Shown: positions 2-52,626 of the stretch, piece by piece | How the letters are laid out: each line of letters starts with the position of its first letter | Position numbering within the stretch: position 1 is the first letter of the stretch | The notes under the pieces: generated by a model | Databases searched by the model: none | The model's input: the letters and a program-made list of their open reading frames with translations, nothing else | What the model was told of the DNA's origin: nothing | Assembly (NCBI GenBank): GCA_965645245.1 | Contig: OZ287068.1 | Coordinates: 496,001 to 560,000 of the forward strand | Source of the DNA: Massalongia carnosa | Lineage: Eukaryota | Direction: 5' to 3' | Length of the DNA stretch: 64,000 nucleotides | Program-made: the position numbers and the translations under genes

Positions 2-1798
2 GTGGACGAATATGATGTATGGCCTGGGGATCTTGTGTCACAAAAAGACGGTGAGGAAGCTATGCTGGAAATAGGGACAAACATCTTTCGTACTCGCAAC
101 ATTGCTGTTGTGCAATCGGCCAATGCGGCTGAACGCGTAGCAAAGGTTCGGTGGTTTGAAAATACCGACGTTTTGATTGGAGGGGACGACCAGTCCTTGC
201 TACTATCTCAGGGTATGATTGGCTCCATAGGGAAGAGGCAAAGTGAAGTCTCGCTGTACGAGATTGCTGCATACCCAGCTTTGGCAAAGAATAGAGGGGA
301 CATTGTGATTGTCATACCCTATCCATTACCACCTCCTGACGCCCTTGATATCCCTGAACAAGCCTCCACCTATCAAGCTCTAGTCACCCAAGCTCGTAAT
401 GCAATTCAACTTGGTCAACCTGACCTGATTGCCTCTGACCCAGTGGATGTCGGAACCTCGGAAGGCTTTGAATGGGTTGGAGAAGTTGTGCACGTTACCC
501 TAGATGGCCGTGTAGTGGTTCGCCTTGGAGCATTGTCAGAAGCTCGAGATATTATCCTGCCTTTGGAGAGGATTATGGTTGTGGCTAGCAACGACGACGA
601 AAGTAGCGCTACGCTATCGGAGGAGGAGGACGGAGATGACTCAGGTGGGAGTGATTCCGAGGCAGCTAGCAACTGGAGTACAGAGAGTGGCTCTGTCGAA
701 ACGATCAGCGTAACTGTAGAGTACGAAGGTGGAAGGAGATTAGACGAGGATCAAGACGATAGCATGTGGACAACGGAGGACGAAGAACTTGCGACTACAG
801 ACCCAAAAGTCTCGACAGCTCTTGCGGCCGATCGAAGCCCGCAACTCGCCGTTGGTTTACTTGGATCCGAGGCGATGGACATCGAGTCGAAAGTTATTGC
901 TGCCGGAAATCAAAAGGTCCTTTGCTTCTCAGACTATCCTACAATGCCTCCTCAATTTGATGTTTTGGAGAGCCCTGTTCCGAATGATCATCACTTTTAT
1001 GACTGCAGTGGAGGCCTGACTGCTGCGGCGATGCGTCGCGTCGGCAAGGAACACGAGATTTTGAGATCTTCTCTACCTGATGGCATCTTTGTGAGGACAT
1101 GGGAAAGTGCGCTCAATTTGCTCCGCGTCGTGATAGTTGGTCCTCGCGATACACCCTACGAGCTCGCACCCTTTGTCATCGACATTCAGCTAGACTCGCG
1201 CTTCCCAGCCTCTCCTCCAAACGCTTTTTTTCACTCTTGGACGAATGGCATCGGCCGAATCAATCCCAATCTGTACGAAGACGGCAAAATTTGCCTCAGC
1301 ATTTTAGGCACCTGGCCTGCTGATGAGAGAAACGAAGGGTGGACCGCAAAGGGCTCCAGCATCTTGCAGGTCCTCGTTAGCCTGATGGGTCTCGTTTTGG
1401 TCAAAGAGCCCTATTACAACGAAGCCGGCTTCGACGTTTTAGTTGGCACTGAAGAATCCCACGTTACCTCGGCGCAATACACCGAAAAGGCCTTCGTCAT
1501 GGCCAAGGGCTTCGTCAAGACAGCGTTGGCTCAGCCCCCTAGTGGTGTGGCGGACATAATCAATTGGCTCTATCTGCCTTCGCAGCCTGGTCCTCATCTT
1601 CTCGAACTTATCGTTAAAGAATCGAAGGCGCTAATCCCTGACTCGACACCAGTCCCGTCCCTGGATAGGAGTGCGAGCGCAGGAAGTGGCCAGGCGGCCC
1701 GTAGACTAAGTGCGGGCGCATTGGTGCTCTTGAAGCGAAGCGTTGAGTGGCTAGAGTCATATCTTCAGCATGAAGAGGTGGCTGCAATTCAGGCTTGA
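2..1798 (+). CDS. UBE2O-like (E2/E3 hybrid) ubiquitin-conjugating enzyme, 5' end outside the window
   Basis: 598-aa open frame. C-terminal UBC fold (IVGPRDTPYE...RINPNLYEDGKICLSILGTW, catalytic Cys; LVKEPYYNEAGF) follows a long acidic region typical of UBE2O-class E2s. Confidence 0.9.
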   Translation: MDEYDVWPGDLVSQKDGEEAMLEIGTNIFRTRNIAVVQSANAAERVAKVRWFENTDVLIGGDDQSLLLSQGMIGSIGKRQSEVSLYEIAAYPALAKNRGDIVIVIPYPLPPPDALDIPEQASTYQALVTQARNAIQLGQPDLIASDPVDVGTSEGFEWVGEVVHVTLDGRVVVRLGALSEARDIILPLERIMVVASNDDESSATLSEEEDGDDSGGSDSEAASNWSTESGSVETISVTVEYEGGRRLDEDQDDSMWTTEDEELATTDPKVSTALAADRSPQLAVGLLGSEAMDIESKVIAAGNQKVLCFSDYPTMPPQFDVLESPVPNDHHFYDCSGGLTAAAMRRVGKEHEILRSSLPDGIFVRTWESALNLLRVVIVGPRDTPYELAPFVIDIQLDSRFPASPPNAFFHSWTNGIGRINPNLYEDGKICLSILGTWPADERNEGWTAKGSSILQVLVSLMGLVLVKEPYYNEAGFDVLVGTEESHVTSAQYTEKAFVMAKGFVKTALAQPPSGVADIINWLYLPSQPGPHLLELIVKESKALIPDSTPVPSLDRSASAGSGQAARRLSAGALVLLKRSVEWLESYLQHEEVAAIQA

Positions 1799-4583: not shown

Positions 4584-6264
4584 CGGAGGATGACACAGGA
4601 AGTTCTGGCCGACGCTAATATGCACGCTAAATAAGCCACCTACAAGGGCCTCAGCCCTACGAAGATAAACTCCTTTATTTACTCCTTTTTTACCTTCTTA
4701 TCCACCTCCTCATCAGTCTACATTGGCCCACTCCTCCTCATCTTCAGTAGGACCTCTCTTTGAACGCAGATTACGACTGCGCCGCTCCTCAGCATCGTAA
4801 GGTCGTACCATTCCTCCTGTTCTCCCTTCTCTGTACTCGTTTCCTCCTTCTAATTCAATGACAGTCTGTATGTGACGAGGCATTCTCTCTATCCAGCTTT
4901 GTATTTGCTCCTGCGATAGCTCGTCCCAACATTCAGTCCATGCTACTTCGGCCTCCCGTCTGCTTCGTGGAGCTCCGAGGTGGGTTGTACGTCTTTTCAT
5001 CCAAGGCCAGCATGGTTCAATCATGTTGAGATCAGGTGAGTTGCCAGGCCACAAAAAAAGCGAAGCACTCGAAAGTCCATAAACACCACATCCTGATGCT
5101 TGGAGGTATGACAGGGGGCCTTATCTTCTTGAACCACCGTGTTTGGACGATCTTTCATGCATTCGGTAGCGAATGGAAGAAGTTTGTCTATCAAAATATT
5201 CTTTTGATAGCGATACCAGTCAATTCCTCCCTTTTTATTATCTCGCACGATCTTTCCATGTTTTTGATCCCATATCCATCGAGGCTGTCGTCCTCCTGGA
5301 TTTCTTAGTCTCATTCGTCTCATTCCATTTTCTAACTCCCAATTGAGCTTCGCCTCTGATTCCAACCTCTTATTGAGAAGCTTCAGCTCTTCCTCGGCTG
5401 CCTTCTTTTCTTTTGCAGACTCAGTCTTCCAGATATGAAAAGGACCTTTTTTATCGTACGAGAAACACCCCCAAAACATGAACTCTGAGTGTCCTTTCCA
5501 TCGACGACGAATGCATGTTTTATCATTCATTTCTTTCGAGGTTCTCCATTGCAGTCTTCTTCCTCTTACTGCATTCAGCATCACGCTCGTCTCGTCACTC
5601 CAGATGACGTTCTTCCAGTCTTCAAGGGTCCAATGCTGATGATCAATGCAAAATTTCAGACGTGCTTCCTTCATGATCGAAGTAAGGCCAGGCTTTTTCG
5701 TTGATTTACAGGCTCGAAATCCATTCTTTTTAAGAACCTTCAAAATAGTGGAAGAACTCAGCTCATGATCAAAAGCCAACATAGCTGAAGACTTCTCCCT
5801 TCTGTTTCGATCTTTGCGTACATCAGTCAATATAGCCTCCTCCAATGCAGGTGTTACTTTAGAAGGTTGGCCTGAACGAGGTGCATCTTCTACATATTCC
5901 ATCTTCAAGACTCGTGAGATCTCGGGATCATATCCTCTGCTTCTTGCTTTCTTCTTGGTATGACTGATAGATCTCGTCGAGACTTCAGTGATTTCCTCTA
6001 CTCTTTTGGCTGATACTCCATGCTCTACGAGAGTCAAGGCCTGAAGTCTTTGAGCGAGAGTCAGTGTGTTATCTTGAGGACGAGTCATGATGATGATAGC
6101 TACAAAATACCAACTAAAATCAACTATTAATTACAAATAATAAAGCATTTTATCTCTTGATGCCCGGAGAACCTTTTTTTAAAAAATTTACCACCCCCCT
6201 GTCTAGTGGCGGAAGCTAATGCAAGCTAAAATACGCGAGCCAGAACTTCCTGTGTCATCCTCCG
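4584..6264 (-). mobile_element. Tc1/mariner (DD34E) DNA transposon
   Basis: Perfect 26-bp TIRs CGGAGGATGACACAGGAAGTTCTGGC (4584-4609, 6239-6264), TA target duplication, transposase inside. Confidence 0.95.
4713..6088 (-). pseudogene. Tc1 transposase with one frameshift near 5052-5059
   Basis: ORFs 5021-6088 (HTH, WSDET, QEDKA) and 4713-5054 (WPGNSPDLNMIE) join across a T7 run; spacing DD34E once repaired. Confidence 0.9.
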
Positions 6265-6405
6265 TAGATGGATGACAGTTGCTCTTATAAAATCAACGTT
6301 TCATTATTTACATATAATTAATATTTAATCTTTATTTGCATTCAAAACTGCTTGCATTCGACGAGACATTGATTGCATTAAACTTTTTAAAAACGTCTTC
6401 GTTAT

Positions 6406-6536
6406 TGTGACGAAGCGAGATGGTGAAAGGCACAATACTTAATCCGCACACCAAGCTCTATTTTACTATAACTAGGACTCCCGCTATGTTCGCTGTAGGT
6501 CCTGCCGTCCGGACCACGCATGGTCGAACCGTTACA
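6406..6536. mobile_element. Solo LTR
   Basis: TGTGACG...CGTTACA termini with an exact 5-bp TSD GTTAT (6401-6405, 6537-6541). Confidence 0.75.
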
Positions 6537-6605
6537 GTTATGTAAATTGAAAAATTCTTTCGCGATCTTATTGCATAAAGATTAGAAAACGCGTTGTTTT
6601 ATAAA

Positions 6606-9094
6606 GGCTTCTAACCGGGACACCCCTTTTCACTACCTTGACACCCCATTTTACTACATTAACACTCCCCCCAAGCTAACCCAATCTGGTATGATTCCAA
6701 CCCGCCCACCTGAACTTCAAAGTAACACAATCAATAATCGTCCGCCATCATCATGACTCTTGCACCACCCCTGTTCATGCTGCAGGAGACTTATGGTTCT
6801 GTCGATCTTCTGATTCTCGTCATGCAAAAACATGCTGGCCCTCAAGGATATGCGGTCTGTCAACTTCGGACCAAAAAATCCTCAACCACCGGTCTAGTGG
6901 ACACATGCTACATTTGTTGTGATCAAGGGAGAAACGAGCGTCAGCCCCGGGGCCAAAAGCGCTTGCATGGAGCCTCCAGGAACGCCGATTGCCCCTTCTC
7001 CATAGTAGTCAAACGGAAGGATGACGGCTGGATAGTTCGCGACATTCGTAATCCAGATCACAATCATTTTGCTACTGTCGAAGGCGCCCATCCATCGCTC
7101 AGGAAAATCGCCCTCAACCCAGCTATAAACGAGGAAATTGTGCGCGCCACAAAGGTTCAAATAAACCAAGTCAAATTATTTCGACATTACGATTGGGGCA
7201 AAGCAATGAAACAGATGACGATAATCTCATTTTCAAACGTCAAGACATCTACAATGCAAAGGCGGTAATTCGACATAAGGCTTTGGGAATACTGTCTCCT
7301 ATACAAGCATTATTGAAAGAATTAAATCGCGATCATTGGTAAGTCTTTGAGGGTATTTTTCTTTCGATTTATATACTAAACACTGTAGGGATTCGTCTCA
7401 CTTCAAGGATAATTCTGATCGAATCACTCATCTTTATTTCAGTAAAGACACGAGTCAAAACACTTTGAAAACAAACCCGGACGTGTTAATCATGGACTGC
7501 ACGTATAAAACCAACAGATATAAACTACCATTGATATCAACCATGGGAACAACAGCATTAAACACCTCTTTCTATGTAGGGTTTTCCTTCCTTCGTCAAG
7601 AACGTCAGGAAGACTATATCTGGTTTCTTCAACAATTAAAGCACCTCTATCGTAAGCTTGAAATCCCATATCCAAAGTTGGTGGTGACCGATCGCGATGT
7701 CGGTTTGATGGCGGCCATTTACAAGGTTTTTCCTGACACACGTCATCTTCTATGCGTGTGGCATATTCACATCTGTGTTCAAGACATCTGGAAACCGATA
7801 TTCAGAAGCAATGAGCACCCCGATGATGATTGGATAGCTTTCGAAGTCATGTGGCATGCAGTGGTTTATTCGAAGACGGAGGAAGAGTATGATATCAATT
7901 GGGATGCCCTCAATGACGCTTATTCAACTGAGCATCCAATGGAAGTGCAGTATTTGATAGACACCTGGCTAGGCCCATACAAACGTAAATTCGTCAAGGT
8001 TTATGTCGACAAAATCCTTCATTTCAACAACACCGTCACGTCGAGGGTGGAGGGTGCTCATGCAGTTTTAGAGCATCAATTGGGCTTTTCCACCGGTGAT
8101 TTGAAAAAGGTAGTGGATAACATCGACCTGCTGATAAAGAATCAACATCAAGAGTATGTTATAAAATTGAATGAGGCCAAAATTCGATTTCCCACCAGAT
8201 TACAAAAACCTTTTTACAGCGATGTACGAGCTCACATTACACCATTCGCCCTGTTGAAAATTCATGATCAGTATGAACGCTTTATGAATCAAAACACCCG
8301 TCTACCACCTTGCACGGGAACTTTTCGAGCGACAATGGGGCTACCATGCGCTCATGAAATCGAGGTAAGTTGATAAACTGAACGAAATAGCCCTGAAAAC
8401 GTACTAATTCTATTGCAATCAGGTTCGACTGTCTGGCCCGGCCCCCAACGTGCTTCAGCGAGATGATATTCACGTCAAGTGGTGGTTTCAGCGCCCTCCA
8501 GAACAGGCTCATCATCGTCATGACACACCTCCTCCAAATGTCATTGATCCCTTACTTTTAGTGCATGAACCCGAGATAGTAGCGCGTCCCCGTGGACGCC
8601 CTACAATCGCAATGAGAAATGAACGGTTACGAACGGAAAGGGCTCAGCGAGAGGCTAACAACTCTACCCAGCGGGAGCCCTCCGGATTTGAACGTATGGA
8701 GGAAGCATTAAATGCACCTTCGACTCGGGGCCGAGGACGAGGGCGAGGGCGAGGGCGAGGGGTAGCAAGGGCTAGAGGAAGGGGACGAGGTGGTAAAGGA
8801 GGGACCTCCGGCGATGTCATTCAATCAATTGAAGTAGATGGAGTCGGTTTATTTCAGGCCTTCAGAATGTAATTACCTCGAAGGGAAAAAGCTGCTCGTC
8901 TATATGCCTGTTTACCATACATTGCAGAAGCCCTCATTTCCCATTTCCATCTTATCGTGTGCCCATTTCGCATGCTTTGATCGGGCGGGTGAACCTCGGA
9001 ATCATACCCGATTGGGTTAGCTTTGGGGGGTGGTGTTAATGTAGTGAAATGGGGTGTCAAGGTAGTGAAAAGGGGTGTCCCGGAATTAGATGCC
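6606..9094 (+). mobile_element. Mutator-like element (MULE)
   Basis: ~95-bp imperfect TIRs (GGCTTCTAACCGGGACACCCCTTTTCACTACC... / ...GGTAGTGAAAAGGGGTGTCCCGGAATTAGATGCC) and 9-bp TSD TTTTATAAA (6597-6605, 9095-9103). Confidence 0.93.
6753..8872 (+). pseudogene. MULE transposase (FAR1-like N-terminus, MULE DDE domain), 2 introns, one frameshift near 7160
   Basis: CDQG..CPF..HNH; DIYNAK; IMDCTYKTN, VTDRD, LLCVWH, SRVEGAH, GLPCAH. Introns 7339-7388 and 8365-8422 restore the frame. RPRGRP and (GR)n tail. Confidence 0.88.
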
Positions 9095-16591: not shown

Positions 16592-18118
16592 CACTATTAT
16601 GGTAGGTCGTTAGTGTCCGGATACATAGGCGAATTTAAACGAATTGCATAGCAGTATGAATTATCTATTTTTTATTATTAATTCATTAAGCGTATACATC
16701 CTAAGGATATGACGCTGTAACTGCTATTTATGTACATAAACAACAGTCAGGAAGTGGAAACCTGGCCCCCAGGGTAAAACCACTCCGTTGTTCCATGTTG
16801 AACGCAACGAGACCGTCCTTCTACCACGCGGTGCATACACCCAGATCTTCAAACGCTAGGAATCCTATTGAATTATCTATTGTTGCTGTTACGTTTCAGT
16901 AAAATAATGCGATTATTTGTTTACATATAACTAATATTTAGTATAACCTCCATTTGCATTCAGGACTGCTTGCACTCGACGAGGCATTGACCGCATTAAA
17001 CTTTCCAAAAACGCCTCCGTTATGCAGTCCCATGCCTCCAAGACAGCATCAACAATGGCCTCTTGAATTTTTGGGGCACTTGCTGACAGAATGCGTAATT
17101 CGGGGTGTCTTCTAAAGACTATGTTCTTCACTTTCTTCCATACCATCTCGATGGGGTTCAAATCGGGGGAGTAGGCCGGCCAATCCATGACCGTGTACCC
17201 CTTTTCTTTGAACCAGTCCATTGTCTCTCGAATTTTGTGTGTTTTAGCTCCATCTTGCATGAAAACAATGCCCGAATCGTTATCGAGCATGGTAGGAAGA
17301 TGTTCTTTATAAGCATCGAGTATAATCAACCCTGTGATACCTTTCTTTCACGTACGATCTGGATCGGGCTCCAACGAGGTCAAACCACCCCGTCGATTGC
17401 CTGCAAAGCAGCCCCAGAACATCTTTGTGACTCTCGATCCATTGTTGACTGGTTCGAAGCATTCTTGATCCCATTTCTCATTTGGAAGTCGAAAAACCCA
17501 CACGTTCTCACTCCCATCCTGTTTGCAAACTGACATCTCATCAGACCAACACACTTGAGCCCACTCATCCTCCGAAACATCCTCATATTGACGTGCCCAG
17601 GCCCAGCCGATCAGCAATATGAGCTTCCATTAACATCGTACAATTAGCTGTGCGCCATTTGCGAACGTTTTGATCACGAAGACGTCGTTTCATGGTGGTT
17701 CGAGAAACATCGGGCATAATGTTAGCTTGCAACTCCCCCAGAGGCTGTCGACGACCCTTTGACCCCGATTTAATCGTTGCTCGTATCAAATGACGATCTT
17801 CTCGTGCTGTGATTATTTTGGGCCGACCAGATCGTACTTCCGTTTTGTGGTCGTCGCGTGTTGTAGCCTTTTTCAAAGTGTCTCCTATGGTCGAACGACC
17901 CCATTGCGGAAACTTTTCGTGTATAGTGCTAACGGAGGCAGCGGCGAGGCCCATACCGTACATTTCAGCTCTGATTATGACGGGCACTTCTTTGCGCGTA
18001 GTTTTGGGCTGTTTAGAGCTACGTGGTGGTGGCATGATGGATTGAAAGGTGGTTGTTTACTTTTCAAAACTAAAAAAATTCTCGCCTATCCTGACACTTC
18101 TGACCCCGCATAATAGTC
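16592..18118 (-). mobile_element. Degenerate Tc1/mariner element; transposase pseudogene 16931-18035
   Basis: Imperfect TIRs (ACTATTATGGTAGGTCGTTAGTGTCCGGATA / TATCCTGACACTTCTGACCCCGCATAATAGT). Three ORF pieces: RSGRPK HTH, WSDEM, MQDGA...WPAYSPDLNPIE...GGYTKY. Confidence 0.88.
16670..16868 (-). mobile_element. 5'-truncated copy of the non-coding retroposon (3' tail only)
   Basis: Highly similar to 19510-19712. A-rich tail at left (plus-strand T/TTA run). 13-bp TSD TGAATTATCTATT (16657-16669, 16869-16881). Confidence 0.88.
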
Positions 18119-19087: not shown

Positions 19088-19509
19088 GTGATTGGGAGCG
19101 GCTTATTGTTGAGATCCGCCTTGATTGCTTAAACTCCACTCCATTTGCACCATCCCAGCGCTGATATTCCTTCCCAACAACCTTTCTCTCATTTCTGCCA
19201 ACCTCCTCGTTGTACCCTCACTCACCTTTCCGGTCCCTTTCCACAAGATCTCTGCGGTTGCGGCTGCCCTTGGCCATAGCATCGCATCCGACGTTACACT
19301 ATCCGTAAGCTGACCCCATAGATGAACTTCACCACCAAGCAATAAGTGTCTCTGTTCCTTAGGAATACCTGCGAGAGGATCGTATGAATATACTTGCCGC
19401 CAGTTGTTATATGTGCTTGGCCAATCTAAAAAAGGGGGCTTGATGGTTGATTCTGGATTCGATAGATCAGGGTCTTGCCAGTTTCCGTATCCACAACTCA
19501 GATCCCAGT

Positions 19510-20263
19510 TTTTTATTTGTTTATTCATTAAGCGTATGCATCCTTAGGATATGACGCTGTGACTGCTATTTATGTACATAAACAACAGTCAGGAAGTGGA
19601 AACCTGGCCCCCAGGGTAAAACCACTCCCTTTTATTCCATATTGAACGCAACGAGATCGTTCTTCTACCACGCGGTGCATACACCCAGATCTTCAAGCGC
19701 TAGGAATCCTATAGACCCGATGAACTAGACAGTGTATCTCCACACGTTCGACGAACATTCTCTCTCTTTAACCGTTTTGACTCAATAGATGATAGACTGG
19801 CCATGATCGAAGGCAGATCGTGGTGTCGTATGAATGAAGATGTGAAAATATGGCCATTCCGAATGAATGGGCTTTTTCGATGAGGTGAGAGGCTTCCGCC
19901 TGGGGGGTGTGGCCATTCCGACTGAATGGGCTTTTTCGATGAGGTGAAAGGCTTCCGCATGGGGGGTGTGGCCATTCTGACTGAATGGACTTTTTCGATG
20001 AGGTGAAAGGCTTCCGCCTGGGGGGTGTGGCCATTTCGACTAAATGGGCTTTTTCGATGAGGTGAAAGGTTTCCGCCTGAGGGGTGTGGCCATTCCGAAT
20101 GAATGGGCTTTGTATGCCTTCGAAGTGGTGAATGATCAGTAGAGACGTTGATCATTCAAACGGCCACCGAGGTGGGCTTCAGCGTTGGCGATGATCAGAT
20201 ATTGGCCACCTCCGAGGAGGTGTTGATAAACTGCACCACGTAGAGGTTTCTGACCTAGCAGGC
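19510..20263 (-). mobile_element. Non-coding SINE-like retroposon (~754 bp): candidate ribozyme head, 59-nt tandem repeats, structured A-rich tail
   Basis: 16-bp TSD CAACTCAGATCCCAGT (19494-19509, 20264-20279). A-rich 3' end. 3' 200 bp duplicated at 16670-16868. No protein-like ORF. Confidence 0.88.
19851..20111. repeat. 59-bp tandem repeat, ~4.4 copies
   Basis: Unit TGGCCATTCCGACTGAATGGGCTTTTTCGATGAGGTGAAAGGCTTCCGCCTGGGGGGTG starts at 19851, 19910, 19969, 20028 and 20087. Confidence 0.95.
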
Positions 20264-20264
20264 C
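20194..20264 (-). ncRNA. Candidate HDV-like self-cleaving ribozyme (degenerate)
   Basis: Minus strand: (G)GCCUGC UAG GUCAGAA ACC UCUACGU GGU GCAGUU UAUCAA CACCUC CUCG GAGGUG GCCAA UAUCUGAU = P1, P2, P3/L3, P1', P4, J4/2, P2' in HDV order. P1 has a mismatch and the P1.1 GG is missing. Confidence 0.55.
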
Positions 20265-22758
20265 AACTCAGATCCCAGTGGCTACGCGGGCCAAAAAGAG
20301 CTTTGTAGCCTTTGGCGACGACGGCTGCAAGCGAGGCTTGTTCACGCCACGTCTGGATAATCATAGATTCTGGGAGATCTAGCTCCCACTCCAGAAGCAA
20401 TTCTTCCCAAGCGATCGCAGTGAATGAGTGCACTGCTGTGAGAGAGAGGACGTGGGAAAAGAAACTTTGCAGAAAAGGCCGGATAATAGATTTTGAGGAC
20501 GATTCGACTGTGGAGTCAAGGCTACATACTTTGGTGTTGATTTCATCGCCGCTATGTTGGATTGCGAAGAATAGGCCGAAATGCGGGGCAAAAGGTCCTG
20601 GAAGAGTGTGTTCAGAAAGCGAGGAACTGCTGCGGAATTCAGCTTCATCTGGCCAGAGGGTGGGTTGGCGGCCCATGTTTCCCATGGCTGTTGGTTGTAA
20701 GCAGCGATGAGGGAGGGGTAGGAGTGATGGATTGATGCAGTATGACCAGGAAGGCTAATCTCAATGTACACCTCAACGCCACGGTATGCCCCGAATTCTT
20801 GGACTTCTCGAGGATCTTTAACTTCCCAGATCTGACTCTTATGATAGGCGCCTTTGAGGGCCAGTTGAGGAATAGCAGGGACATAAAGAGGCCAGGATTG
20901 GACGCCATTTGCATGCAAATGCAGACGGTTAAACTTGTTGAAGCTTAGCGCTTCAAGAGTACGCTTGACATCTTTGGGTGAGACCCGGTTCTTGGAGATG
21001 TCTAGGTGCAAGCCTCTATGCTCAAACGATGGCCAAGCATCGATGAAAATGGCAGCATATGGCGTGTACACGGCACCTTCCGTTTTCGAATGTGCATAGA
21101 AGAGCTGCGCGAGGGTGTTAAATGCGTGCAGTCCCCCTCGGGTTGATAGGATTTTGATCACTGCATGCCCATCTCTCTCAATTTCTATCGAGTAGGACTC
21201 GTCTGATAGGATGTAGTTAGCATCTGGATAAGCGATTTCCACATGCTTTTCAATGTGTATACGCCGAATATAGATTCTTGGGTCCTTAGCGTTCGGCTCG
21301 AAGTCAACGTTCCTTGGGTAGAATTTATAAGGAATGAACTTTTCGGAGAAAAGATTCTCTTTCATGCGTTGAAACGCATCCCCCAGGACGTACTCCTTCC
21401 CCTGGAAGTGCTTATGAGCACATTGCGGGTGCTCCTCCCCAGGGAAACCCCGTTGGCCAACAAAGCTGAAGGGCGCAAGGCAGACGGACCAACTCACATA
21501 CACAAGATATGATCGATCCACCTTTCAACAGAAGGGTCCGGTAGGTATAATCCACAGCCGGTGACATCCAGAGGGTGCTAAAGCCATGCGAGTACATTTG
21601 CGGCATTGGCCATGGAGCCATGATAAGCGGCGAATGGCCGAGGCATATGCGAAGCTGTTCAAGTTGCAGAGCCCGGTGCTCGAACTGTGATGTCAGCGCA
21701 GTGAGCGTGGTGAGGGCCTGGAGAAGGAAAACCTGGCAGGCTCAAAGGGTAGCTGCCGAACCTTTCCGGTCTTTCAGTAAGAGCAGCGCGTTTCGGTTGT
21801 CCGTCAAGACCCGCTTAAGGGGGGGCGAAGGTGAGCGCTTGCACGTACGTAGTTTATATCTCTATATTCTATAGAGCTGCATGAACAACATGGTCTACCT
21901 ATCCCATACATGAAAATTAGCACAGGGTAGGTAAATGATGCAGAAGCCAAAAAGCCTTTAACGTTGATGAATAAGTCGCTGCTTCCCTTTCCAGAGCTGG
22001 GCCCAGGTCCAAGAGCATCGTTACTGTTTAGTCATGCTAGGGCGATATTTCCATTTTACCTAGATCGTCCCTGCTAAAACCAAGAATGTCAAACCTCAAT
22101 GCTCAAACAACCTGAACTGGCAACCAAAAACATATCTCATCCATCCACAAGAAACGTCCCCAAAACTAAGCATATACCGTAAACACGTCTTTGCAGAGCA
22201 AAATACTGCCTGATCCTCCTTCATCTAACCAATATTTAGACAAGACTTTGCATATAAGTATCTCCCCCCTGTTATTTAAAAGTCTTATGAACTGAGGGGT
22301 GCCAAGTTCGTTGCTGAATTAATAACAATAGGACTTTTTGAAGATGAATAGAAGGTAGCACTCTTTCTTATCCTCTGGCATGATGTTTAAATGCAGATAG
22401 ATACGGGGTATAGGCTTCTGATCGTAGCAGTGCGGCAGGTTAGTAGACGCTGATAGCGAGAGTAGCGTCTAGGGGAAATGAAAGCCTGCTGATAAGTGAA
22501 TATGTAAAAAGGGATGGCAAATGGGTCGTGAGGAGGGGGCACGCTCTGTGGAAATGTTGGTTCATATTTTTGTAGTAGCGGTATTGTTGAGGAGAGATTG
22601 AAATGGTCGGGGACGACAAGATGGCAGAAGAAGGAAAGAACTTTAGTAAATGCCTATGATAGCACTAAAGAAAAGAGATGTGGGTATGATTCGATTGGTT
22701 TCGTCAAAAGCACTTCACTCAACAAAGCCTGAATATCCAAAGAAGTTCACAAGATAGC

Positions 22759-27025: not shown

Positions 27026-27927
27026 CGCGTTGCCTTCCTTTAAGACCTTCGGATGTGTAAAGCTATTTCATTAGCAAGTGAGACTTTAAAAATAAGGTAT
27101 TGAGGCTTAAGTTCTTCTTACTCACTTGGTCAGAGTCCTAGTGACGATGAAGCGAGGGGCGCTTCAAGAGATTATTTGAAGGGTGAGGAGCTTGAAGTCT
27201 AAGTCGAAATCAAAGTAAAGAGATGATGTCTTTGAGTATTATGGACGTTGAAGGCATTTATGGAGGATGAGGAGTAAAGGTTGAGGAACATGTTAGTGGG
27301 AAAGGAATTGGAAGTGAACATAGAGTCTCTGTACATAATGACGAGGATTCAGGTGCACATTCAAGGTTTCGTTGTTAGCGTGAGGGAATGCAACGTAAAG
27401 TACCGTAGTCTGTATTGGGCGATATTATGAAACATACGTGTTGGATAGAACAAGCGTCCGTAAGGCTGACTTAACCTCATGGCTTAACCCGGTTTTCCCT
27501 TCACAACTACTCCGTACTCTAGTCATATCTATCTATATCAATTCTACCACTCATTTCTTGTTCCAACTTTGTGTTGAGGCGATCGAGGGAGGCAATTTTA
27601 GGATCTACATAAAACTTTGAGTTTACGATCTTCCTTTCAAGATAGGTGGGTATGTAAAAAGCACCCTAGGCAACCGCTGAGAGGTCGTTCTCAGTGGTCT
27701 ATCGCCTAAGTCACGGAATATCACTTTCCCGTTCGACAACAAACATAGAAACTGCTCATAGCTTTTCTAGTGAAACACTTTCTGCTTGAGGCGCACGGGC
27801 TGTGGACCCATCGCTTATTGCTACAATACGAATCTTTGATGAAAAATAACAGGAAAAAAAAGGAAAAATAGAGAAGAAAAGGAAAGAAAGAGCATCACAA
27901 ATCGGTAGTAGAAGCTGCTTTCATCTC

Positions 27928-29796
27928 TCACGCTTTCCCTTTCCCCTTCCCCTTCCCTTCCACCATTTCTTCCTCCAATCCCGCCCCCGTCGAGGTCCCA
28001 GCCTTCACCTCGGTCTTGGCCTTCCTGGCAGCGGCGATCTCCGGCGTCCAAATTGCGCCAATCGGGTCTGGGTAGAGAGTGATGGTCTCCAGGCCATTAT
28101 GCGCCATTGACTGGCGCACCTTGCCCCAGAGACCATCTTCCCACTGCTCCCCCCCCTGCCAGAGGTCCATGCATGCAACCCCCCCGGTGGACAAGCGGAG
28201 CGCTGTCCGCTTCATTGTCGCGGGGAACTTCTCCACCTCGTTCCCCGCATTGTCCACCCCACCCCCAACAACTGCCGTGCAGGTCTCGAGGCGCTTTGGG
28301 CAACTGGTAGCCTCAACGGGCAGCCCAAAGCATGCCCACTTCCCCTCTTTCCCCTTCTTCCTCTCCTTCCCACTTTGGCGGAAACGTATTCCCCAAAAAA
28401 ACCAATCCCCTTTTCCCATCCCCCTCCTTGTTTGCTCTTCCTCGAGCCTCTCGCTATGCCCACCCTTCCCGGTCTTCACAGTCCCCAGTTTCCCAACCCG
28501 CTTCTCCCGAACTTCTCGCTTCCAATTAGAACTTTCATAGATCGTCACCTGGCCTTGGCAAAGAGCCTCCACACCGTCAAGCCCCACTTCAAAATGCGCC
28601 AGTAAGACGCGAGACCTAGCTTTTGGGCTATGCATTGGGGGGGTGGTAGCGATGAATGAGATCGCAAGAACAGGAATAACGAGGAATTCGCGTTGATGAC
28701 AGATGGCGGAAGTAAATGTACCAGGCATCTTTGTTAGGTCAGGAGTGTTGAGAGAAGTTAAATATTTCTTGACGGTGGCAGCTGTTGTGGTGTTGCTTTC
28801 TTTCTCTTTGATATTACCGAAGGTATTGCTAAAATCCGCTTCATGATGAAAGTTCTTTGGAGTGGCATAATCTTCGTGGATCCCAAACGCCTTTGGGGTA
28901 TCGTCGCTGCCTGTTGTCACTTGATGAGGGCTGCTTGTCTGTGTTGCAAAAATTTCTTCTTGAGTGCTGGATTCCTTGTTGGCATGCTCACCACCAACTG
29001 TCATCTGAAGAGTGTTGGCAGCCTTTGGAGTAACATCCCAATCGATATCCGTCATCATAGTATCCGGTGTATCTTCGAGCCTATGATACTTTGGCTGGTC
29101 TATGGAATAAGCTTCATTGATATCAACTTCCTCAACTTCCTCAGGCTTGGCAGTATCTAGATGCTTCTCGTCATAAAGCTTGAGGATAGTGTCATCAAGG
29201 AACGCGCGATCTTCTGACTTCCGGTTCATGTCCACCGCAAAGTTCTCACATATGTTCAAAGTGGATCTAAGATTGAAAGCATTGGATTTAGACAAGTTCT
29301 TGGAGATTTGTGGCGCTGAAGATGGAATGGGCCAAGGTTCGTCGTCAAATATCTCAAGCGCTCGCTGCAGACGCCGACTAGCCTCTTGCGCTTTCGGCAT
29401 ATCTTCCTCGAGATGCTTGTTGCGAGCCTCCTTAACTTTCTTCTTCTCTTCTGCCATTCTTCCTTTATGTCTTGATGCTTTTGGAGCTGAAGAGGTGGAA
29501 GCTTGAGCTAGTGAACCTGAAAGTGTTAAGGATGAAGTGAGGTTTACACCTTCTTGACTTGAGATCGCGAGGTCTAAGGTGTATTTAGAAAGCTGATCAA
29601 TCAAAGCATCCGATTCTACTTGATGATCTAGTATGGCGCTAGCTGAAAGAGATGGTACTGATGCAGAGCCTGTGGTAGAAGGTGTCTCGTTGATCTTAAG
29701 AGGAGTTTGTGACAGTAAGGATTCAGAAAGCTCGCTTAACTTGTCTGTCAATGTTTTTCCGGAACTATTCCCTTTAATCGAAGCCGGTGGATCCAT
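27928..29796 (-). CDS. Hypothetical protein (~620 aa; disordered N-terminus, compact C-terminal domain)
   Basis: Uninterrupted 627-codon ORF, first ATG at 29796; no recognised motif. Confidence 0.65.
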   Translation of the reverse strand: MDPPASIKGNSSGKTLTDKLSELSESLLSQTPLKINETPSTTGSASVPSLSASAILDHQVESDALIDQLSKYTLDLAISSQEGVNLTSSLTLSGSLAQASTSSAPKASRHKGRMAEEKKKVKEARNKHLEEDMPKAQEASRRLQRALEIFDDEPWPIPSSAPQISKNLSKSNAFNLRSTLNICENFAVDMNRKSEDRAFLDDTILKLYDEKHLDTAKPEEVEEVDINEAYSIDQPKYHRLEDTPDTMMTDIDWDVTPKAANTLQMTVGGEHANKESSTQEEIFATQTSSPHQVTTGSDDTPKAFGIHEDYATPKNFHHEADFSNTFGNIKEKESNTTTAATVKKYLTSLNTPDLTKMPGTFTSAICHQREFLVIPVLAISFIATTPPMHSPKARSRVLLAHFEVGLDGVEALCQGQVTIYESSNWKREVREKRVGKLGTVKTGKGGHSERLEEEQTRRGMGKGDWFFWGIRFRQSGKERKKGKEGKWACFGLPVEATSCPKRLETCTAVVGGGVDNAGNEVEKFPATMKRTALRLSTGGVACMDLWQGGEQWEDGLWGKVRQSMAHNGLETITLYPDPIGAIWTPEIAAARKAKTEVKAGTSTGAGLEEEMVEGKGKGKGKA

Positions 29797-33034: not shown

Positions 33035-34359
33035 CAGTCGGGTCTAGGAAGTGACCGAACAGCGCACGTTCCACCCCCATTTTACCCCTCACCCCTAATG
33101 ATGAAAATCACCCCAATCAATCAATTTCCAACTTGATGCTTTGAGACCTTCATATTTCGTCAAATACTGTATGCTGAAGAAGATTAAGTCATCAGTATTT
33201 AATAGAACCCCCTTTAGCCTTAATAAGAAAGCGAATACGCTCAGGCATGCTCTCAATGCACCGTCTGAAGTCCTCCTCAGTCAACAGCTCCCATTCCTCC
33301 CGAATAGCCTGCTCCATGGCCTCAATTGTATGGATTTGGTGACGACGGGCACTGACCCTTATTTTGATAATACGCCAGAGATTCTCAATGGGATTCAAAT
33401 CGGGTGACTGAGGTGGCCAATCCATGCGTAAAAGCCCGTTTCGTCTTCCCCAATCAATCACCTTTTTCGAAGTATGATAGCTGGCTCCGTCATCCATCCA
33501 GATCGTCAAACCTCGCCTAGTCAAGCATGCTTCATAAAACGAGAGCCCTAAAGGCCGTAGCACCTCGTCAATGTAGATATCTGAATTCATTCGTCTCCCC
33601 TTATTCAAAACGAGCATAGGGCCTTTTTCACCCAATCGTATGCTAGCCCAGATGCCCACAGTGCTTCGTCCGCTTTTGTATGTAGGCTTCAGATATCTAG
33701 ACTCCATGGCCGTGCCTTTTCGTCTCATGACGTAGCACGAGCGAGTGTCTAAACCAGTTTCAAACGTAGCTTCATCTGTCCATATAACTCGGCCCCAATC
33801 TCCTACCGTCCAATGCTTATGCTCCTTGCCCCATTTTAGCCTGATTGCTTTGTGACGTGCTGATAGAAACGGCTTTTTTCTAGCCCTGAAACGGAAATAG
33901 CCACCGAGCTTCAGATATTTTCGTACGGTGACGCGAGAGAGCTTTTGACCCGATTTGGAAGGGGTAGTCAGGGCCAGCAAATTATCGTGTGGATTTTTCT
34001 CAACATGGCGAATCAATGCCCGTCTGGCACGGACATTTAGCTTGGTTGGCCGACCAGTACGTTTTTTGGGAACGGAAGAGGCGTCGGCTTGTCTCTTAGC
34101 TCTATGAACTATGGTGACCACGGTGGAACGGGCCAGCCGAACTTGACGGGCTATTTCAGCATAGGAATAGTGGACTTCATGAAGGGCTACAACGATAGCA
34201 ATGGTTTCAGACGAATGTTCACGTCTGGCCGTCTTGGGTTTGGAAGGCATTTCGTTGATCAGATGAAAATTGATGGAGAAAGGGGAGGGTGAAGTAAGGG
34301 GGGAATTTAGATGAGGGGAAATTAAGCGAAGTGTTTGCTGACTTCCTAGACCCGATTTG
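33035..34359 (-). mobile_element. Tc1/mariner element nested in the chromovirus pol tail
   Basis: TIRs CAGTCGGGTCTAGGAAGTGACCGAAC / GTTTGCTGACTTCCTAGACCCGATTTG; TA at 33033-34 and 34360-61. Confidence 0.93.
33192..34250 (-). CDS. Intact DD34E Tc1 transposase (352 aa)
   Basis: HTH and GRP motif, WTDEA, MDDGASYH, WPPQSPDLNPIENLW (34-residue D-E spacing), KGGSIKY; no stops. Confidence 0.92.
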   Translation of the reverse strand: MPSKPKTARREHSSETIAIVVALHEVHYSYAEIARQVRLARSTVVTIVHRAKRQADASSVPKKRTGRPTKLNVRARRALIRHVEKNPHDNLLALTTPSKSGQKLSRVTVRKYLKLGGYFRFRARKKPFLSARHKAIRLKWGKEHKHWTVGDWGRVIWTDEATFETGLDTRSCYVMRRKGTAMESRYLKPTYKSGRSTVGIWASIRLGEKGPMLVLNKGRRMNSDIYIDEVLRPLGLSFYEACLTRRGLTIWMDDGASYHTSKKVIDWGRRNGLLRMDWPPQSPDLNPIENLWRIIKIRVSARRHQIHTIEAMEQAIREEWELLTEEDFRRCIESMPERIRFLIKAKGGSIKY

Positions 34360-37300
34360 TACCTGTGCGTGCCATGTGTGATGTTTTGGGCTTTATTAGA
34401 AGCCCTTTAGTTGCTACAACCCGCTGCTTTCGTTGTGTCTTTGATTGCTTTACCTCCGGATGAGTTGATTCGTATTCTTCTACCAGTGTTAAGCAGTCTC
34501 CTAAGGCTGCGATGCTTCTCCATTCATCGTACTCTGGTCCGTACCCCAGCCATCGTACGAGGTATTGAGTTACTGTGGTCTTCCCATATTTTCGGAGCCG
34601 TTTGGCTATTATCTTCTCCACTTCGTAGGATTTATTGTCAATTGTGTCGCCTAGCATCTCCACTGATTCTGGATGAGTGGGTCTATAACGATCATACGGG
34701 TCCTTTGTGGTGTCTGCAGGCTCAAGCTGGGCAATGGATACGACGGGATGTACCCTCCATTTAGGAGGTAGCTCTAGTTCGTACGCCAGGCGCCCTACCC
34801 TTTTCTTAATGAGAAAGGGTCCAGTTCGCTGACTGCTCAGCTTCTTATTAGGTTTGCCCGGTAATTGATACCCATTGTGAAGGCGTAAATACGCATAGTC
34901 CCATTCCTTCAATAACAAAGGCTTGTGTCTTGCATCGTAATAGATCTTTGCTTTTGCATTGGCAAAAGATGTGGCGTCTGCGGCCTCTTGTGCATACTCG
35001 AGTCTTTTTTCGGCTGTGTTTAGCTCTTTATCGGGAGCCAGTGTTGACAATATTTCTTTCACTTTGAATCCGTACATTATTTCATTGGGAGATAGTCCTG
35101 TGGATGACGTGGGAGAATTGTTCAGACTTGCTTGTAAAGCTGGAAGCGCTTTCACTACACTTATATCGGGATTCTCGGTGATCAGGTATCGAAGCGCTAT
35201 CTCCACGGTTTGATTTGTTCTTTCGGATAAACCGTCCGTCTGTGGATGATATGCTGTACTTGTCAATAGACTGGTACCCAATCTTTTGAATAGGCCCTTC
35301 CAGAATTCTGAAAGAAACTTGGGGTCTCTATCCGAGATTATAACCTCTGGTATCCCCCAATCGGCTATCAATAGGAGCTCTAATACTAATTCGGCCCATT
35401 CGTCCGCGGAATGTGTTGATTTACCAGCGATAAGCGATTTTCTCCTGGTCGCTTTGTCTGAGATTGTGAGAACTACATCTAGGTCACCGGGGATTGCGAG
35501 TATGAAATCCATAGCAATTGTTCGGAATGGTATTGTTGAAGTAGAAATTGGCATCAATTCGCCGTATGGGGGATGTCTTTTGGTCTGAATTGGCTGACAT
35601 GCAGGGCAGTGTTTAATGTAGAGATGAAGTTTGCGAGATAGTCTTGGCATGTAGATGCTCTCAACGAAACGGCGATAAGCTTTATGATGGCCGGCGTGAA
35701 AGTTCTGATCGTGGGCCAGTTGAAATACTTCCTTTTCGCAATTTTGAGGAATGCACAGCCTGCTGCTGTTGCTGGTGGCGTTACTGCCCTCGTGTTTGTG
35801 ATATATGAGACCGTGTGCGAGCACGAAGTCCACGCCCGTTTTCACCGCATTATCATCGGAATTGCTACTTTGTGTAGTTACTTCTTTCATCTTACGCTTC
35901 TCCAGACCCTCTAACATTCCCAATATTTTGCACCACGATTTGTCCTTAATATAACCCGTTGCGAGTTTTTTCTTGAACTCTGTGGATAGTGTTATCAAGG
36001 CTTGACTGTGGGCGTACACTCGATCTGATTCTGGGATTCTACGGAGGTTTAATAGGATTCCAGATTAATTGTCTTTGGTGTACTTCGGTTAGCGACGGGC
36101 AATCGGCTCAGTGCGTCTGGGACTATATGAGCTTTGCCGGGTTTGTACCGTATGTCTAACCTGAACTGAGATAGATATGTGGATGCTTTGACGAGATTGA
36201 GGTTGAGCTTGTCGATGCTACTTGTAGACAACTTGGTCTGTTTAGCAATTGCTGTATTTGCCTCATGATCGGTATAAATAGTAGTTGAATGTCTCGATCC
36301 TTGAATCATATGATGAATTCTCTTTACCATCCATACTAGCCCATTCATCTCTAACTCAGTGGGCCAGTATCTTGATTCCGCGGCCGAAAGAGTTTTGCTG
36401 AGAAACAGGATGGGGTCTACGTCTTGTCTTTTCGGAGGTAGTGCGGGTATTGATACTCCGTCATCACCTCTATCGCTTTTTAAATGATATACCATAACTC
36501 CTACTCCTTGCTTGGAGGTATCTACGTCGGCGTACAGTCTTCGTGTTGTGGAAAAATGAGTGAGCAAGCTAGGCTTGCTGAATGCTTCTTGTAATTGAGA
36601 GTAGGCGTCCAGCTCTGCATCGGATGGGTCTGCGATAAGGGTTCGAAGGCTATAGTTCTTCCTAGCTTTACCCTTGTTGGAAGGAGAGTCTCTAAGAAGC
36701 ATGGTCTTCCGAATTTGCAACGGTTCCGCCTTTTGTGCGTAGTATGGTACATAATCGCGAAGCCATCCGGTGAATCCAAGATATCGCTCGAGATCTTTGA
36801 GCCTTTCTGGGAAACTCATGCCTGCTATTGCGGATAGCTTTTCGGCTGCGGTTGTGAGGGCAAGACTATCCACCTTCTGTCCTAGAAGTGTGATGGTAGG
36901 GTATCCGAGGTACGTCTTAGAAGGCTTGATTGCCAGATTGATTTTGCTGAATAGTTCGAAAATCTGATTGAGATGGCGAATATGCTCTTCCAAAGAGTGG
37001 CTGAATATGACTATATCATCTACGTATGCCCTGGCAAAAGCTCAATATGGCCTGAGAATCCCGTCGATTTGACGTTGCGCATAGGCCGGGCTGTTTCTGT
37101 ATCCCATTACTGCCACGTTCCATTGTTCTGATCCTCTATGAGATACTACTGTGAGTTTGTGGCGGTCCGATTTTTTTACTGGCCACTGATGGAAGAAACC
37201 TGCCCCGTCCATGACGCTGATGTAGGTGTAGCCCTGAATAGCGGAGGTAACATCCGCCTGTCAAAGCATTGGGTAAGCATCGAATTCGGATAACTTATTG

Positions 37301-50981: not shown

Positions 50982-52626
50982 ATGTCTTCCACTTATCAGG
51001 AAATTGAGGCTCGAATTCAACTAGCTATTGATCATCTACGAAAAAATCCTACAGCTAAAAGAGCTAAAATTGCGCGTCAATTCGACGTGCCTTCGCAGCG
51101 ACTTCGTTTTCGACTTCAAGGTCATCCCCCCGCATCTGACGTACGAGGACTGCATGGACGTACGAGGACTGCATGGACGTCGATTATCATCTGATCAAGA
51201 CTTGGCCTTAGTCTTATATATTCAACGAATGATCGCATTAGGCCTTCATCCTCGTCTTCGAATGATAGAAGCAGCTGCCAATAAGTTGCTAATGCAGGGC
51301 TGGACTGATTCGACCCCACCACAACTATTGAGTCATGCATGGGCCACGCGATGGATGAGTCGTCATTCTGAATTTCAGAAGATTAAACGCAAGCCTATTG
51401 CAGCCGTACGAAAGGATGCGGAGGACCCGGTCGTTTTACGAGCTCATTTTAATCAGTACAGTCAGATAGTGCATGAGCATGGCATATGTGATGAGGACAA
51501 ATGGAATTTTGATGAGACGGGCTTTCGATTAGGCATCGCACGATCAGATTGGGTCATTACTTTAGCAGATGACAAGCAGAAAAAGGTGTTTTCCAAAGAT
51601 CCAGACAATCGTGAAAGTTTGACAGCCATCGAATGTATAAATGGCGCTGGGGGCAGCATTCCTTCATTTCTCATACTCAGTGGATTAATGATTCAAGGTT
51701 CATGGGCCGAAAATGATTTGAATGATGGAGTCATGCTTTCGACAGCCGAGACTGGTTATTCAAATGACTGGTTATCTATAGAATGGCTGAAGCATTTCGA
51801 TAAGCACTCCTCAAAGAGTCAAAAAGGGGCGTATCGACTGCTAATGATGGATGGTTATGGGTCGCATCATACTATTGAATTTATTGAGTACTGCAATGAG
51901 GCCAAAATTATCCCCTTCGGCCTGCCACCTCATACGACTCATCTGTTGCAACCATTGGACGTCGTAGTTTTTCAGCCCCTGAAACATTGGCATGCTGAGG
52001 CGGTTAAGGATGCAATGGCCCATGGGGACGAGACGTTTAATAAGGTGGAATTTTTGAATGCTTTCAACTCGTTTCGAAATAAAGCATTCAAAATTTCGAC
52101 TATAAAATCAGCATGAAAGGCCGTGGGCATCATTCCTTTCGATCCGTCCGTTGTCTTCGATAAATTGGGATCAGGGGCCTCGTACATTGAGGCCGATCCT
52201 TTTGCTGATATTTATGATCAAACACCTGATCATTCGGATAATGATCTTTCGGACCCGCAAACTCCGAAGAATTTGAGTGCTTTGCTTCAAGCTTCGTATG
52301 AAATTGAGGCTCAATATCCGAAATTTGTCAAAGGCGCTTTAGCATGTGCTCGAGAAAGCGAGCTGTTATCGGATCAATTAGCACTGACTAAAGCAGCCGA
52401 AAACGCTCGAAAGGTGAGGGCCAATCAGAGCAAGCATTACGTTCAAAAAGGGAGGAGTTATTCAGGTGGATCAATGCAGAAGAATGACTTTCGAGCGAAA
52501 GGAGGAAGAGGAGCAATTGGAGTCGGATCGTCAGAAGAAGGCTGATCGTCAACAACGAAAGCGATGGGGGCCGATATTTAGGGAGTTGAAACGGAAGATA
52601 CCATATTATATAGTGAATGGCTCGTA
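50982..52626 (+). pseudogene. pogo/Fot1 DDD transposase A
   Basis: psq/CENP-B HTH, WNFDETGF, MMDGYGSH, LQPLDV. Frameshift from a 19-bp tandem duplication (~51138-51175), TGA at 52114-52116, further frameshift near 52450. Confidence 0.9.

Follow-up and report, generated by a model that had tools for sequence, protein, structure and literature searches.

Insects and trypanosomatids harbor well-established examples of retroposons headed by a ribozyme, and in fungi, ribozymes of the hepatitis delta virus (HDV) type are known, without a stated role. L1TcRz is an active and fast ribozyme with a P1.1 of a single pair, and the non-coding NARTc has the same head (PMC3185411). The fungal variant HDV ribozymes described by Li and Breaker (2017) number 230 in 26 species, with many per genome and variable gene neighbours; two were shown to cleave, and the variants are recognized by three marks: P2 and P3 are separated by one extra nucleotide, the cleavage site typically has a C-G pair, and a loop E motif takes the place of part of P4 (PMC5640933). 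The word 'retrotransposon' is absent from PMC5640933, and HDV-type ribozymes tied to fungal retroposons were not found in a literature search that had most subscription journals outside its reach. Here, we describe an insert on the minus strand of a 64,000-nt stretch of DNA (Massalongia carnosa, contig OZ287068.1, positions 496,001 to 560,000), called the window below, in which all positions are counted. The insert is likely to be one copy of a high-copy family of non-autonomous retroposons of the type without long terminal repeats (non-LTR), headed by an HDV-like self-cleaving ribozyme and residing in a lichen-associated fungus. The host is described as such going by the labels of sequencing runs and by gene content alone; run labels include 'lichen metagenome', and one run so labelled contains the flanks of the window without any difference.

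The insert and its boundaries comprise the following features.

19510-20264, minus strand: whole retroposon copy, delimited by an exact flanking direct repeat and by the match of other copies, which ends at 20264 and at 19509-19523; non-coding.
20265-20279, minus strand: upstream copy of the target-site duplication (TSD), 16 nt when the shared G at 20264 is included.
19494-19509, minus strand: downstream copy of the TSD, from a direct-repeat search and reading of the sequence.
19851-20111, minus strand: 59-nt tandem repeat in 4.4 copies, with a copy number that differs among family members.
19510-19720, minus strand: structured 3' domain with hairpins, including a palindrome (19560-19591), AATAAA (19520-19525), and a variable A-rich tail (19510-19522).

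An exact direct repeat of 16 nt flanks the insert (19494-19509 and 20264-20279), and the G at 20264 is both the last base of the upstream repeat copy and base 1 of the element. A preliminary description of this locus had reported a 754-bp insert with an exact 16-bp TSD and an A-rich 3' tail, without a tRNA or 5S head and without a protein-like open reading frame; all of this is borne out except the length, which is 755 nt. The element begins with a 72-nt ribozyme-like head and a short linker, continues with 59-nt repeats in variable number and a strongly folded 3' domain of about 200 nt, and closes with the A-rich tail, which makes up the final 13 nt. At E <= 0.1, Pfam gives no match for any of the seven open frames within the insert; one DUF matches at E 0.15, under its cut-off. 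ARAGORN finds 0 tRNA genes in the insert, and Rfam scans reveal no likeness to tRNA, 5S, or 7SL even at E <= 10; the element does not have the head of a classical short interspersed nuclear element (SINE) transcribed by RNA polymerase (Pol) III. The sense strand of the element contains two TTTT runs, which would speak, as a weak point, against transcription by Pol III, and the AATAAA where body meets tail would fit 3'-end formation by Pol II. Folding of the 3' domain gives a minimum free energy of -67 kcal/mol (z -3.68), and none of 200 shuffled sequences is equally stable. A small hairpin lies within each 59-nt repeat and is the only yield of a scan for promoters and terminators of the bacterial type, which is not relevant to a eukaryote.

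Besides this copy, the window holds a second member of the family, and it is the sole other match to the element in the 64 kb.

16670-16868, minus strand: 5'-truncated family copy comprising the 3' 199 nt only, without ribozyme, 92.7% identical, with an A-rich tail.
16657-16669 and 16869-16881: 13-nt duplication around the truncated copy, as a direct repeat.

The 5' truncation of the second copy is the expected leftover of target-primed reverse transcription. The truncated copy with its duplication (16657-16881) is inserted just 3' of a frame for a Tc1/mariner-type transposase on the same strand. Further copies were sought by mapping contigs of four public runs (X1, X3, X5, and X6) to positions 19300-20500 at a likeness of at least 80%, and 2022, 240, 121, and 26 contigs, respectively, match this stretch. 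Summed depth on the element is hundreds-fold above that on the flanks (about 160,000-680,000 versus about 850 in X1), summed contig depth not being the same as copy number. The match ends at 20264 in 13, 12, 5, and 3 contigs of X1, X3, X5, and X6 (33 in total) and at 20265 in 4, 4, 3, and 0 contigs (11 in total), and 11 of 44 ends at 20265 is about what one chance matching base yields; full-length copies thus begin at the G of P1, the start predicted for them in the preliminary description. Past the stop at 20264, flanks differ between contigs (agreement 0.41-0.59). On the 3' side, matches end at 19509, 19516, and 19523, indicating a tail of variable length. Joints that skip 234-236 nt reflect a variable number of 59-nt repeats, and joints among the contigs reveal copies with fewer 59-nt repeats or with different middles. 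In one X1 contig, 20264 is linked back to 19523, corresponding to two head-to-tail copies of which the first is without its last 13 nt.

As to the head, depth in the bin that holds the ribozyme is the highest or second-highest in three of the four runs, and four contigs of the organism designated B stay similar down to 20193, the last paired ribozyme base, and diverge past it; these observations hint, but no more than hint, at a head that is conserved better than any other module or is common to other elements. Because its TSDs are of variable sequence, its 3' end is A-rich, one copy is 5'-truncated, many copies are dispersed, and coding capacity is absent, the data support a non-coding, high-copy, dispersed family of non-LTR-type retroposons, in agreement with the preliminary description, which had called the insert a non-coding retroposon.

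The 5' end of the element was analyzed for its fold. The window position of RNA nucleotide n is 20265 - n; the predicted parts are as follows, in the order of the RNA.

20193-20264, minus strand: HDV-like ribozyme head, 72 nt, matched by positions 1-74 of the RF02682 model end to end, with covariation on alignment A5 (see below).
20258-20264 (RNA 1-7), minus strand: 5' strand of P1, GGCCUGC, with predicted cleavage 5' of G 20264.
RNA 8-9, minus strand: J1/2, UA.
20249-20255 (RNA 10-16), minus strand: 5' strand of P2, GGUCAGA, forming 7 of 7 pairs with 20193-20199.
20248 (RNA 17), minus strand: extra base A between P2 and P3.
20235-20247, minus strand: P3, ACC/GGU (RNA 18-20 with 28-30), around L3, UCUACGU (RNA 21-27), identical to the RF02682 consensus.
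20228-20234 (RNA 31-37), minus strand: 3' strand of P1, GCAGUUU in this copy, with two changes private to it at 20229 and 20230.
RNA 38-42, minus strand: J1/4, AUCAA.
20207-20222 (RNA 43-48 with 53-58), minus strand: P4, CACCUC-CUCG-GAGGUG, a plain hairpin of 6 pairs.
20200-20206 (RNA 59-65), minus strand: J4/2, GCCAAUA, in which the alignment puts C 20205 on the model's catalytic C.
20193-20199 (RNA 66-72), minus strand: 3' strand of P2, UCUGAUC, the last paired ribozyme bases.

The helices P1, P2, P3 with L3, and P4, followed by J4/2, had been placed in HDV order by the preliminary description; all of them are present, and P2 extends to seven pairs. Such a complete P2, which is not seen by covariance models, has a probability of 0.6% by chance at five offsets. 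P3 closes the 7-nt L3 with three pairs, and the 3' strand of P1 follows immediately; in this copy, that strand forms six of seven pairs with the 5' strand. Only one U-A pair is possible in P1.1, the second position being C versus U. The C at 20205 in J4/2 is the putative catalytic base. The match to RF02682 starts at the first base of the element, and so the 5' boundary of the element and the predicted cleavage G coincide, as had been noticed at the outset.

When the contigs of the four runs were compared with this copy, two differences in the head stood out. Throughout the family, 20229 A>G and 20230 A>C (plus strand) account for about 99% of mapped depth in X1, X3, X5, and X6, with 44, 28-29, 15-16, and 6 supporting contigs, respectively. 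In the majority RNA, the 3' strand of P1 reads GCAGGCU and P1 is complete in this multi-copy comparison, with G1.U37 and six Watson-Crick pairs (7 of 7). HDV ribozymes typically have a G.U wobble at the cleavage site. For P1, P3, and P4 as a nested set, the energy changes from -15.9 kcal/mol in this copy to -24.0 kcal/mol with the majority letters, and the unconstrained minimum-energy fold with the majority letters includes P1 and P4. Among the best-supported 40 of 88 variant places, no family-wide difference falls in the 5' strand of P1, and apart from the two places in P1 none of the other 38 lies in the 72-nt head, whereas the next 81 nt contain eight. The two changes in P1 probably weaken or abolish cleavage of this copy itself. 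The preliminary description had called the copy decayed on account of a P1 mismatch; the mismatch is real, but it is private to this copy.

To look for related ribozymes, a core-only descriptor was composed of P3 with L3, seven free bases, AUCAA, a gap of 10-36 nt, and GCCAA, so that P1, P2, and P4 were left free. An exact 25-mer of the head has 0 hits in the metagenome collection, and the core-only descriptor found 14 loci there. Five of these (L003, L004, L005, L009, and L013) were rejected as chance hits in GC-rich coding DNA in which the core encodes a Leu-Tyr-Val-Val stretch; even with free offsets, their best P1 has 3-5 of 7 pairs and their best P2 3-4 of 6, and L003 and L009 are alike in the stretches read. 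The other nine form P1 with 5-7 of 7 pairs at a fixed offset, fully paired in six of them, and P2 with 5-6 of 6 pairs, and all nine match RF02682 (24.7-43.6 bits, the best being L008). No similarity to the window element exists past the 14-20-nt core. The extra base between P2 and P3, which is A (20248) in the window, is C in eight relatives and U in one, and the pair at the cleavage site, G.U in the window family, is C-G in six of nine. L002 and L012 are decayed copies.

For an analysis of covariation, a model (R1) was built from eight of the ten heads, all ten were aligned to it (alignment A5), and P2 was added as a pseudoknot; a MAFFT alignment of the ten heads (A2) misplaced P4 and the 3' end, and the model-based A5 was used instead. 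The single window hit of R1 is the head itself (24 bits), which is not independent support as the seeds were found with a pattern derived from the window. In A5, 96.2% of cells form a standard pair, as compared to 81.7% in shuffles, of which 0 of 500 reach the observed value, and to 23-44% after displacement of the partners by 1-3 columns. Both-sided changes occur in 15 of 24 pairs, with a shuffled mean of 4.8, and are distributed over P1 (6 of 7), P2 (5 of 6), and P4 (4 of 8). P2 is outside the aligning model, yet 98.3% of its cells pair. Compensated changes in P1 are also found inside a group of eight relatives, namely from U-A to C-G (L010, L011) and from C-G to U-A (L006). The membership of the first 72 nt of the element in the HDV-like fold class is supported by these data. 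The missing GG of P1.1, which the preliminary description had also taken for decay, does not look like decay, because the nine relatives, in which J1/4 AUCAA was fixed by the search pattern, pair well in P1, P2, and P4.

The group of eight consists of AT-rich eukaryotic metagenome contigs (L001, L002, L006, L007, L010, L011, L012, and L014), with the ribozyme placed, for example, at L007:1712-1790. Upstream of the ribozyme, they share a conserved block in which T runs are found together with a TATAAA-like box, about 40 nt ahead of the cleavage site, and a run of A10-12 that abuts the site, and the similarity of distant pairs ends at the ribozyme or at most about 100 nt past it. The ninth relative, L008, has its HDV-like ribozyme at positions 17-86, with perfect P1 and P2 and a score of 43.6 bits against the RF02682 gathering score of 44. 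It is followed by 4.1 kb in which eight frames were scanned and yielded one weak Pfam match below cut-off, and a repeat of the 16 nt upstream of this ribozyme was not found downstream. No reverse transcriptase was detected by Pfam in 17 frames of L008, L011, and L014; frames of L011 and L014 encode hAT transposase, BED, and Myb/SANT domains.

Several observations weigh against a ribozyme-headed retroposon and have to be considered together with the alternatives. Comparison with Infernal HDV models, which had been proposed as a check, gave a divided answer: the RF02682 alignment spans 20193-20264 end to end with a single non-pair, in P1, but the score of 23.4 bits is far under the gathering score of 44, with E 0.28 for 4 kb; for the whole window E is 4.5, which is no significant result for a blind scan. 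No Rfam match in the window reaches its gathering score, and a scan of the whole window at E <= 10 gave 16 weak hits, with RF02682 as the only ribozyme family. A loose topology descriptor ranks the head first among 161 sites in the window, and in 18 of 30 shuffled 64-kb strands one or more sites score as high (mean 1.0 per strand), i.e., the topology alone recurs about once per shuffled 64-kb strand. Judged on the single head alone, the fold would fail a blind test, and both the Rfam score and the shuffled strands speak for a chance resemblance of the 5' end to HDV topology. Nevertheless, we consider chance highly improbable. The match begins precisely where the repeat unit does, a position that counts because this first base is set independently by the duplication and by the 33 contig break points, the family majority mends the single mismatch in P1, and the core-only descriptor brings up sequences that pair and covary in the parts left free. 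The full P2, at its low probability, points in the same direction. It is because of the exact 5'-end position, the family-majority letters, and the covariation in related sequences that the fold is taken to be beyond chance.

The covariation has limits of its own: the independent lineages number only three (the window family, L008, and the group of eight), the search pattern dictated P3, L3, and the junctions, and the model to which the sequences were aligned comprised P1, P3, and P4. Also, the ribozymes of the group of eight are not visibly heads of duplication-flanked elements, and their context is unlike that of a retroposon head. The restriction of P1.1 to one U-A pair beside a C/U mismatch is a further point, and it favors, together with the P1 that is broken in this copy, a relic fold in which an ancestral ribozyme survives in present copies that do not cleave, the head being kept by the youth of the family or as a stable 5' structure. 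We regard a relic as very unlikely, given the lack of listed variant places in the head other than the two in P1 (although, with 40 of 88 listed, minor head variants may be hidden), the nine distant relatives with identical junctions and well-paired helices, and the active ribozyme with a one-pair P1.1 on record (PMC3185411). Another explanation concerns the precise 5' ends, which an internal promoter starting at +1 would also give, uniform ends suiting a fixed start site as well as cleavage. The head might then act mainly or also as a promoter at the DNA level, like Pr77 of L1Tc, with the ribozyme fold in a secondary or backup role, and in L1Tc and NARTc promoter and ribozyme do reside in the same 77 nt (PMC3185411, PMC3383444). 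This explanation appears unlikely; the covariation of P1, P2, and P4 indicates selection on the RNA fold beyond what a DNA promoter alone explains, and the two roles are compatible. Finally, no long interspersed nuclear element (LINE) sharing the 3' end turned up: there is none in the 64-kb window, and a search for longer proteins, in which the last 49 residues of a 148-aa internal frame served as query, gave 10 candidates, none of them at E <= 0.01.

With a ribozyme-headed retroposon as the preferred explanation, the following course of mobilization can be proposed. A copy would be transcribed by read-through from an outside promoter; the present copy sits in sense in a gene for a GH20 protein. 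The ribozyme would cut 5' of G1, leaving an RNA that starts at the first base of the element, and the 3' end would be set near the A-rich tail. The reverse transcriptase of a partner LINE would then copy the element RNA at a nicked target, which would lead to target duplications of 13-16 bp and to occasional 5'-truncated copies. The stable 3' domain is retained in the truncated copy and would fit a recognition site for the reverse transcriptase.

The gene interrupted by the element is hexosaminidase-like, and the insertion, in sense orientation, splits its GH20 catalytic domain. The two flanking frames match positions 167-273 and 284-347 of Pfam PF00728 (GH20), and removal in silico of the element and one repeat copy leaves the host frame open over 293 aa. 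An empty site, i.e., a joint that bypasses the whole insert, was not encountered among the 15 joints listed, of 28, in the contigs of the four runs. Upstream of the insertion, at 20379-20754, two overlapping frames of the GH20 gene each have a GH20 match, indicating that the gene shifts frame there, via a short intron or a frameshift. Other mobile elements are abundant in the window, with transposases of the Tc1/mariner, MULE, and pogo/Tc5 types and a chromodomain Gypsy element (5021-8373, 16930-18056, 33192-37041, and 51025-54222). At 27841-27982, weak matches to plant and animal miRNA precursors cluster on both strands, corresponding to a long hairpin or inverted repeat, and this cluster overlaps the end of a 630-aa frame.

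The element joins ribozyme-headed retroposons with the HDV-type ribozymes of fungi and provides for the latter a concrete, testable context, namely 5'-end formation of a mobile RNA. It also represents a young, high-copy family capable of knocking out genes in a lichen-associated fungus. We tentatively put forward a wider possibility, that 'orphan' fungal HDV-type ribozymes are in part heads of promoter-less retroposons, for which the present family with its hundreds of copies might serve as the first worked example, and that they include a subclass marked by the extra base between P2 and P3, AUCAA in J1/4, and a one-pair P1.1, spanning fungi and other eukaryotes.

In its organization, the element resembles NARTc, RIME, and SIDER of trypanosomatids, the non-autonomous partners of L1Tc/ingi, which are short and non-coding, produce TSDs, have an A-rich end, and start with an HDV-like ribozyme of ~77 nt with cleavage at +1 and a single pair in P1.1 (PMC3185411, PMC4035085). 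As described, those elements have both ends, 5' and 3', in common with a known LINE, and their head doubles as a promoter, whereas no partner LINE was found for the present family in the searches given above. The element differs from them in its fungal host and in the 59-nt tandem repeats of its body, and the likeness drawn here is one of organization. Similarly, the SIDEs of Drosophila, internally deleted forms of R2, combine a 5' ribozyme with a 3' end for target-primed reverse transcription (PMC3414825, PMC6765202); R2 and its SIDEs are reported to occupy a single site in 28S ribosomal DNA and to be co-transcribed by Pol I, whereas the present family is dispersed among unlike flanks. With regard to the fold, the head has P3 and L3 identical to those of RF02682, the HDV ribozyme of Faecalibacterium prausnitzii, as well as an identical order of helices, the J4/2 of RF02682 being GGC-AA. 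That ribozyme is bacterial, is located upstream of glmM (PMC6765202), and has AGG in J1/4, which permits a two-pair P1.1, unlike the head studied here. With the fungal HDV variants, the head shares the extra nucleotide between P2 and P3, the A at 20248; going by their published description only, it is unlike them in having G.U at the cleavage site and probably also in its P4, a plain hairpin of six pairs (PMC5640933). The closest known systems are, by function, NARTc, RIME, and SIDER together with the R2 SIDEs and, by fold, RF02682 together with the fungal HDV variants.

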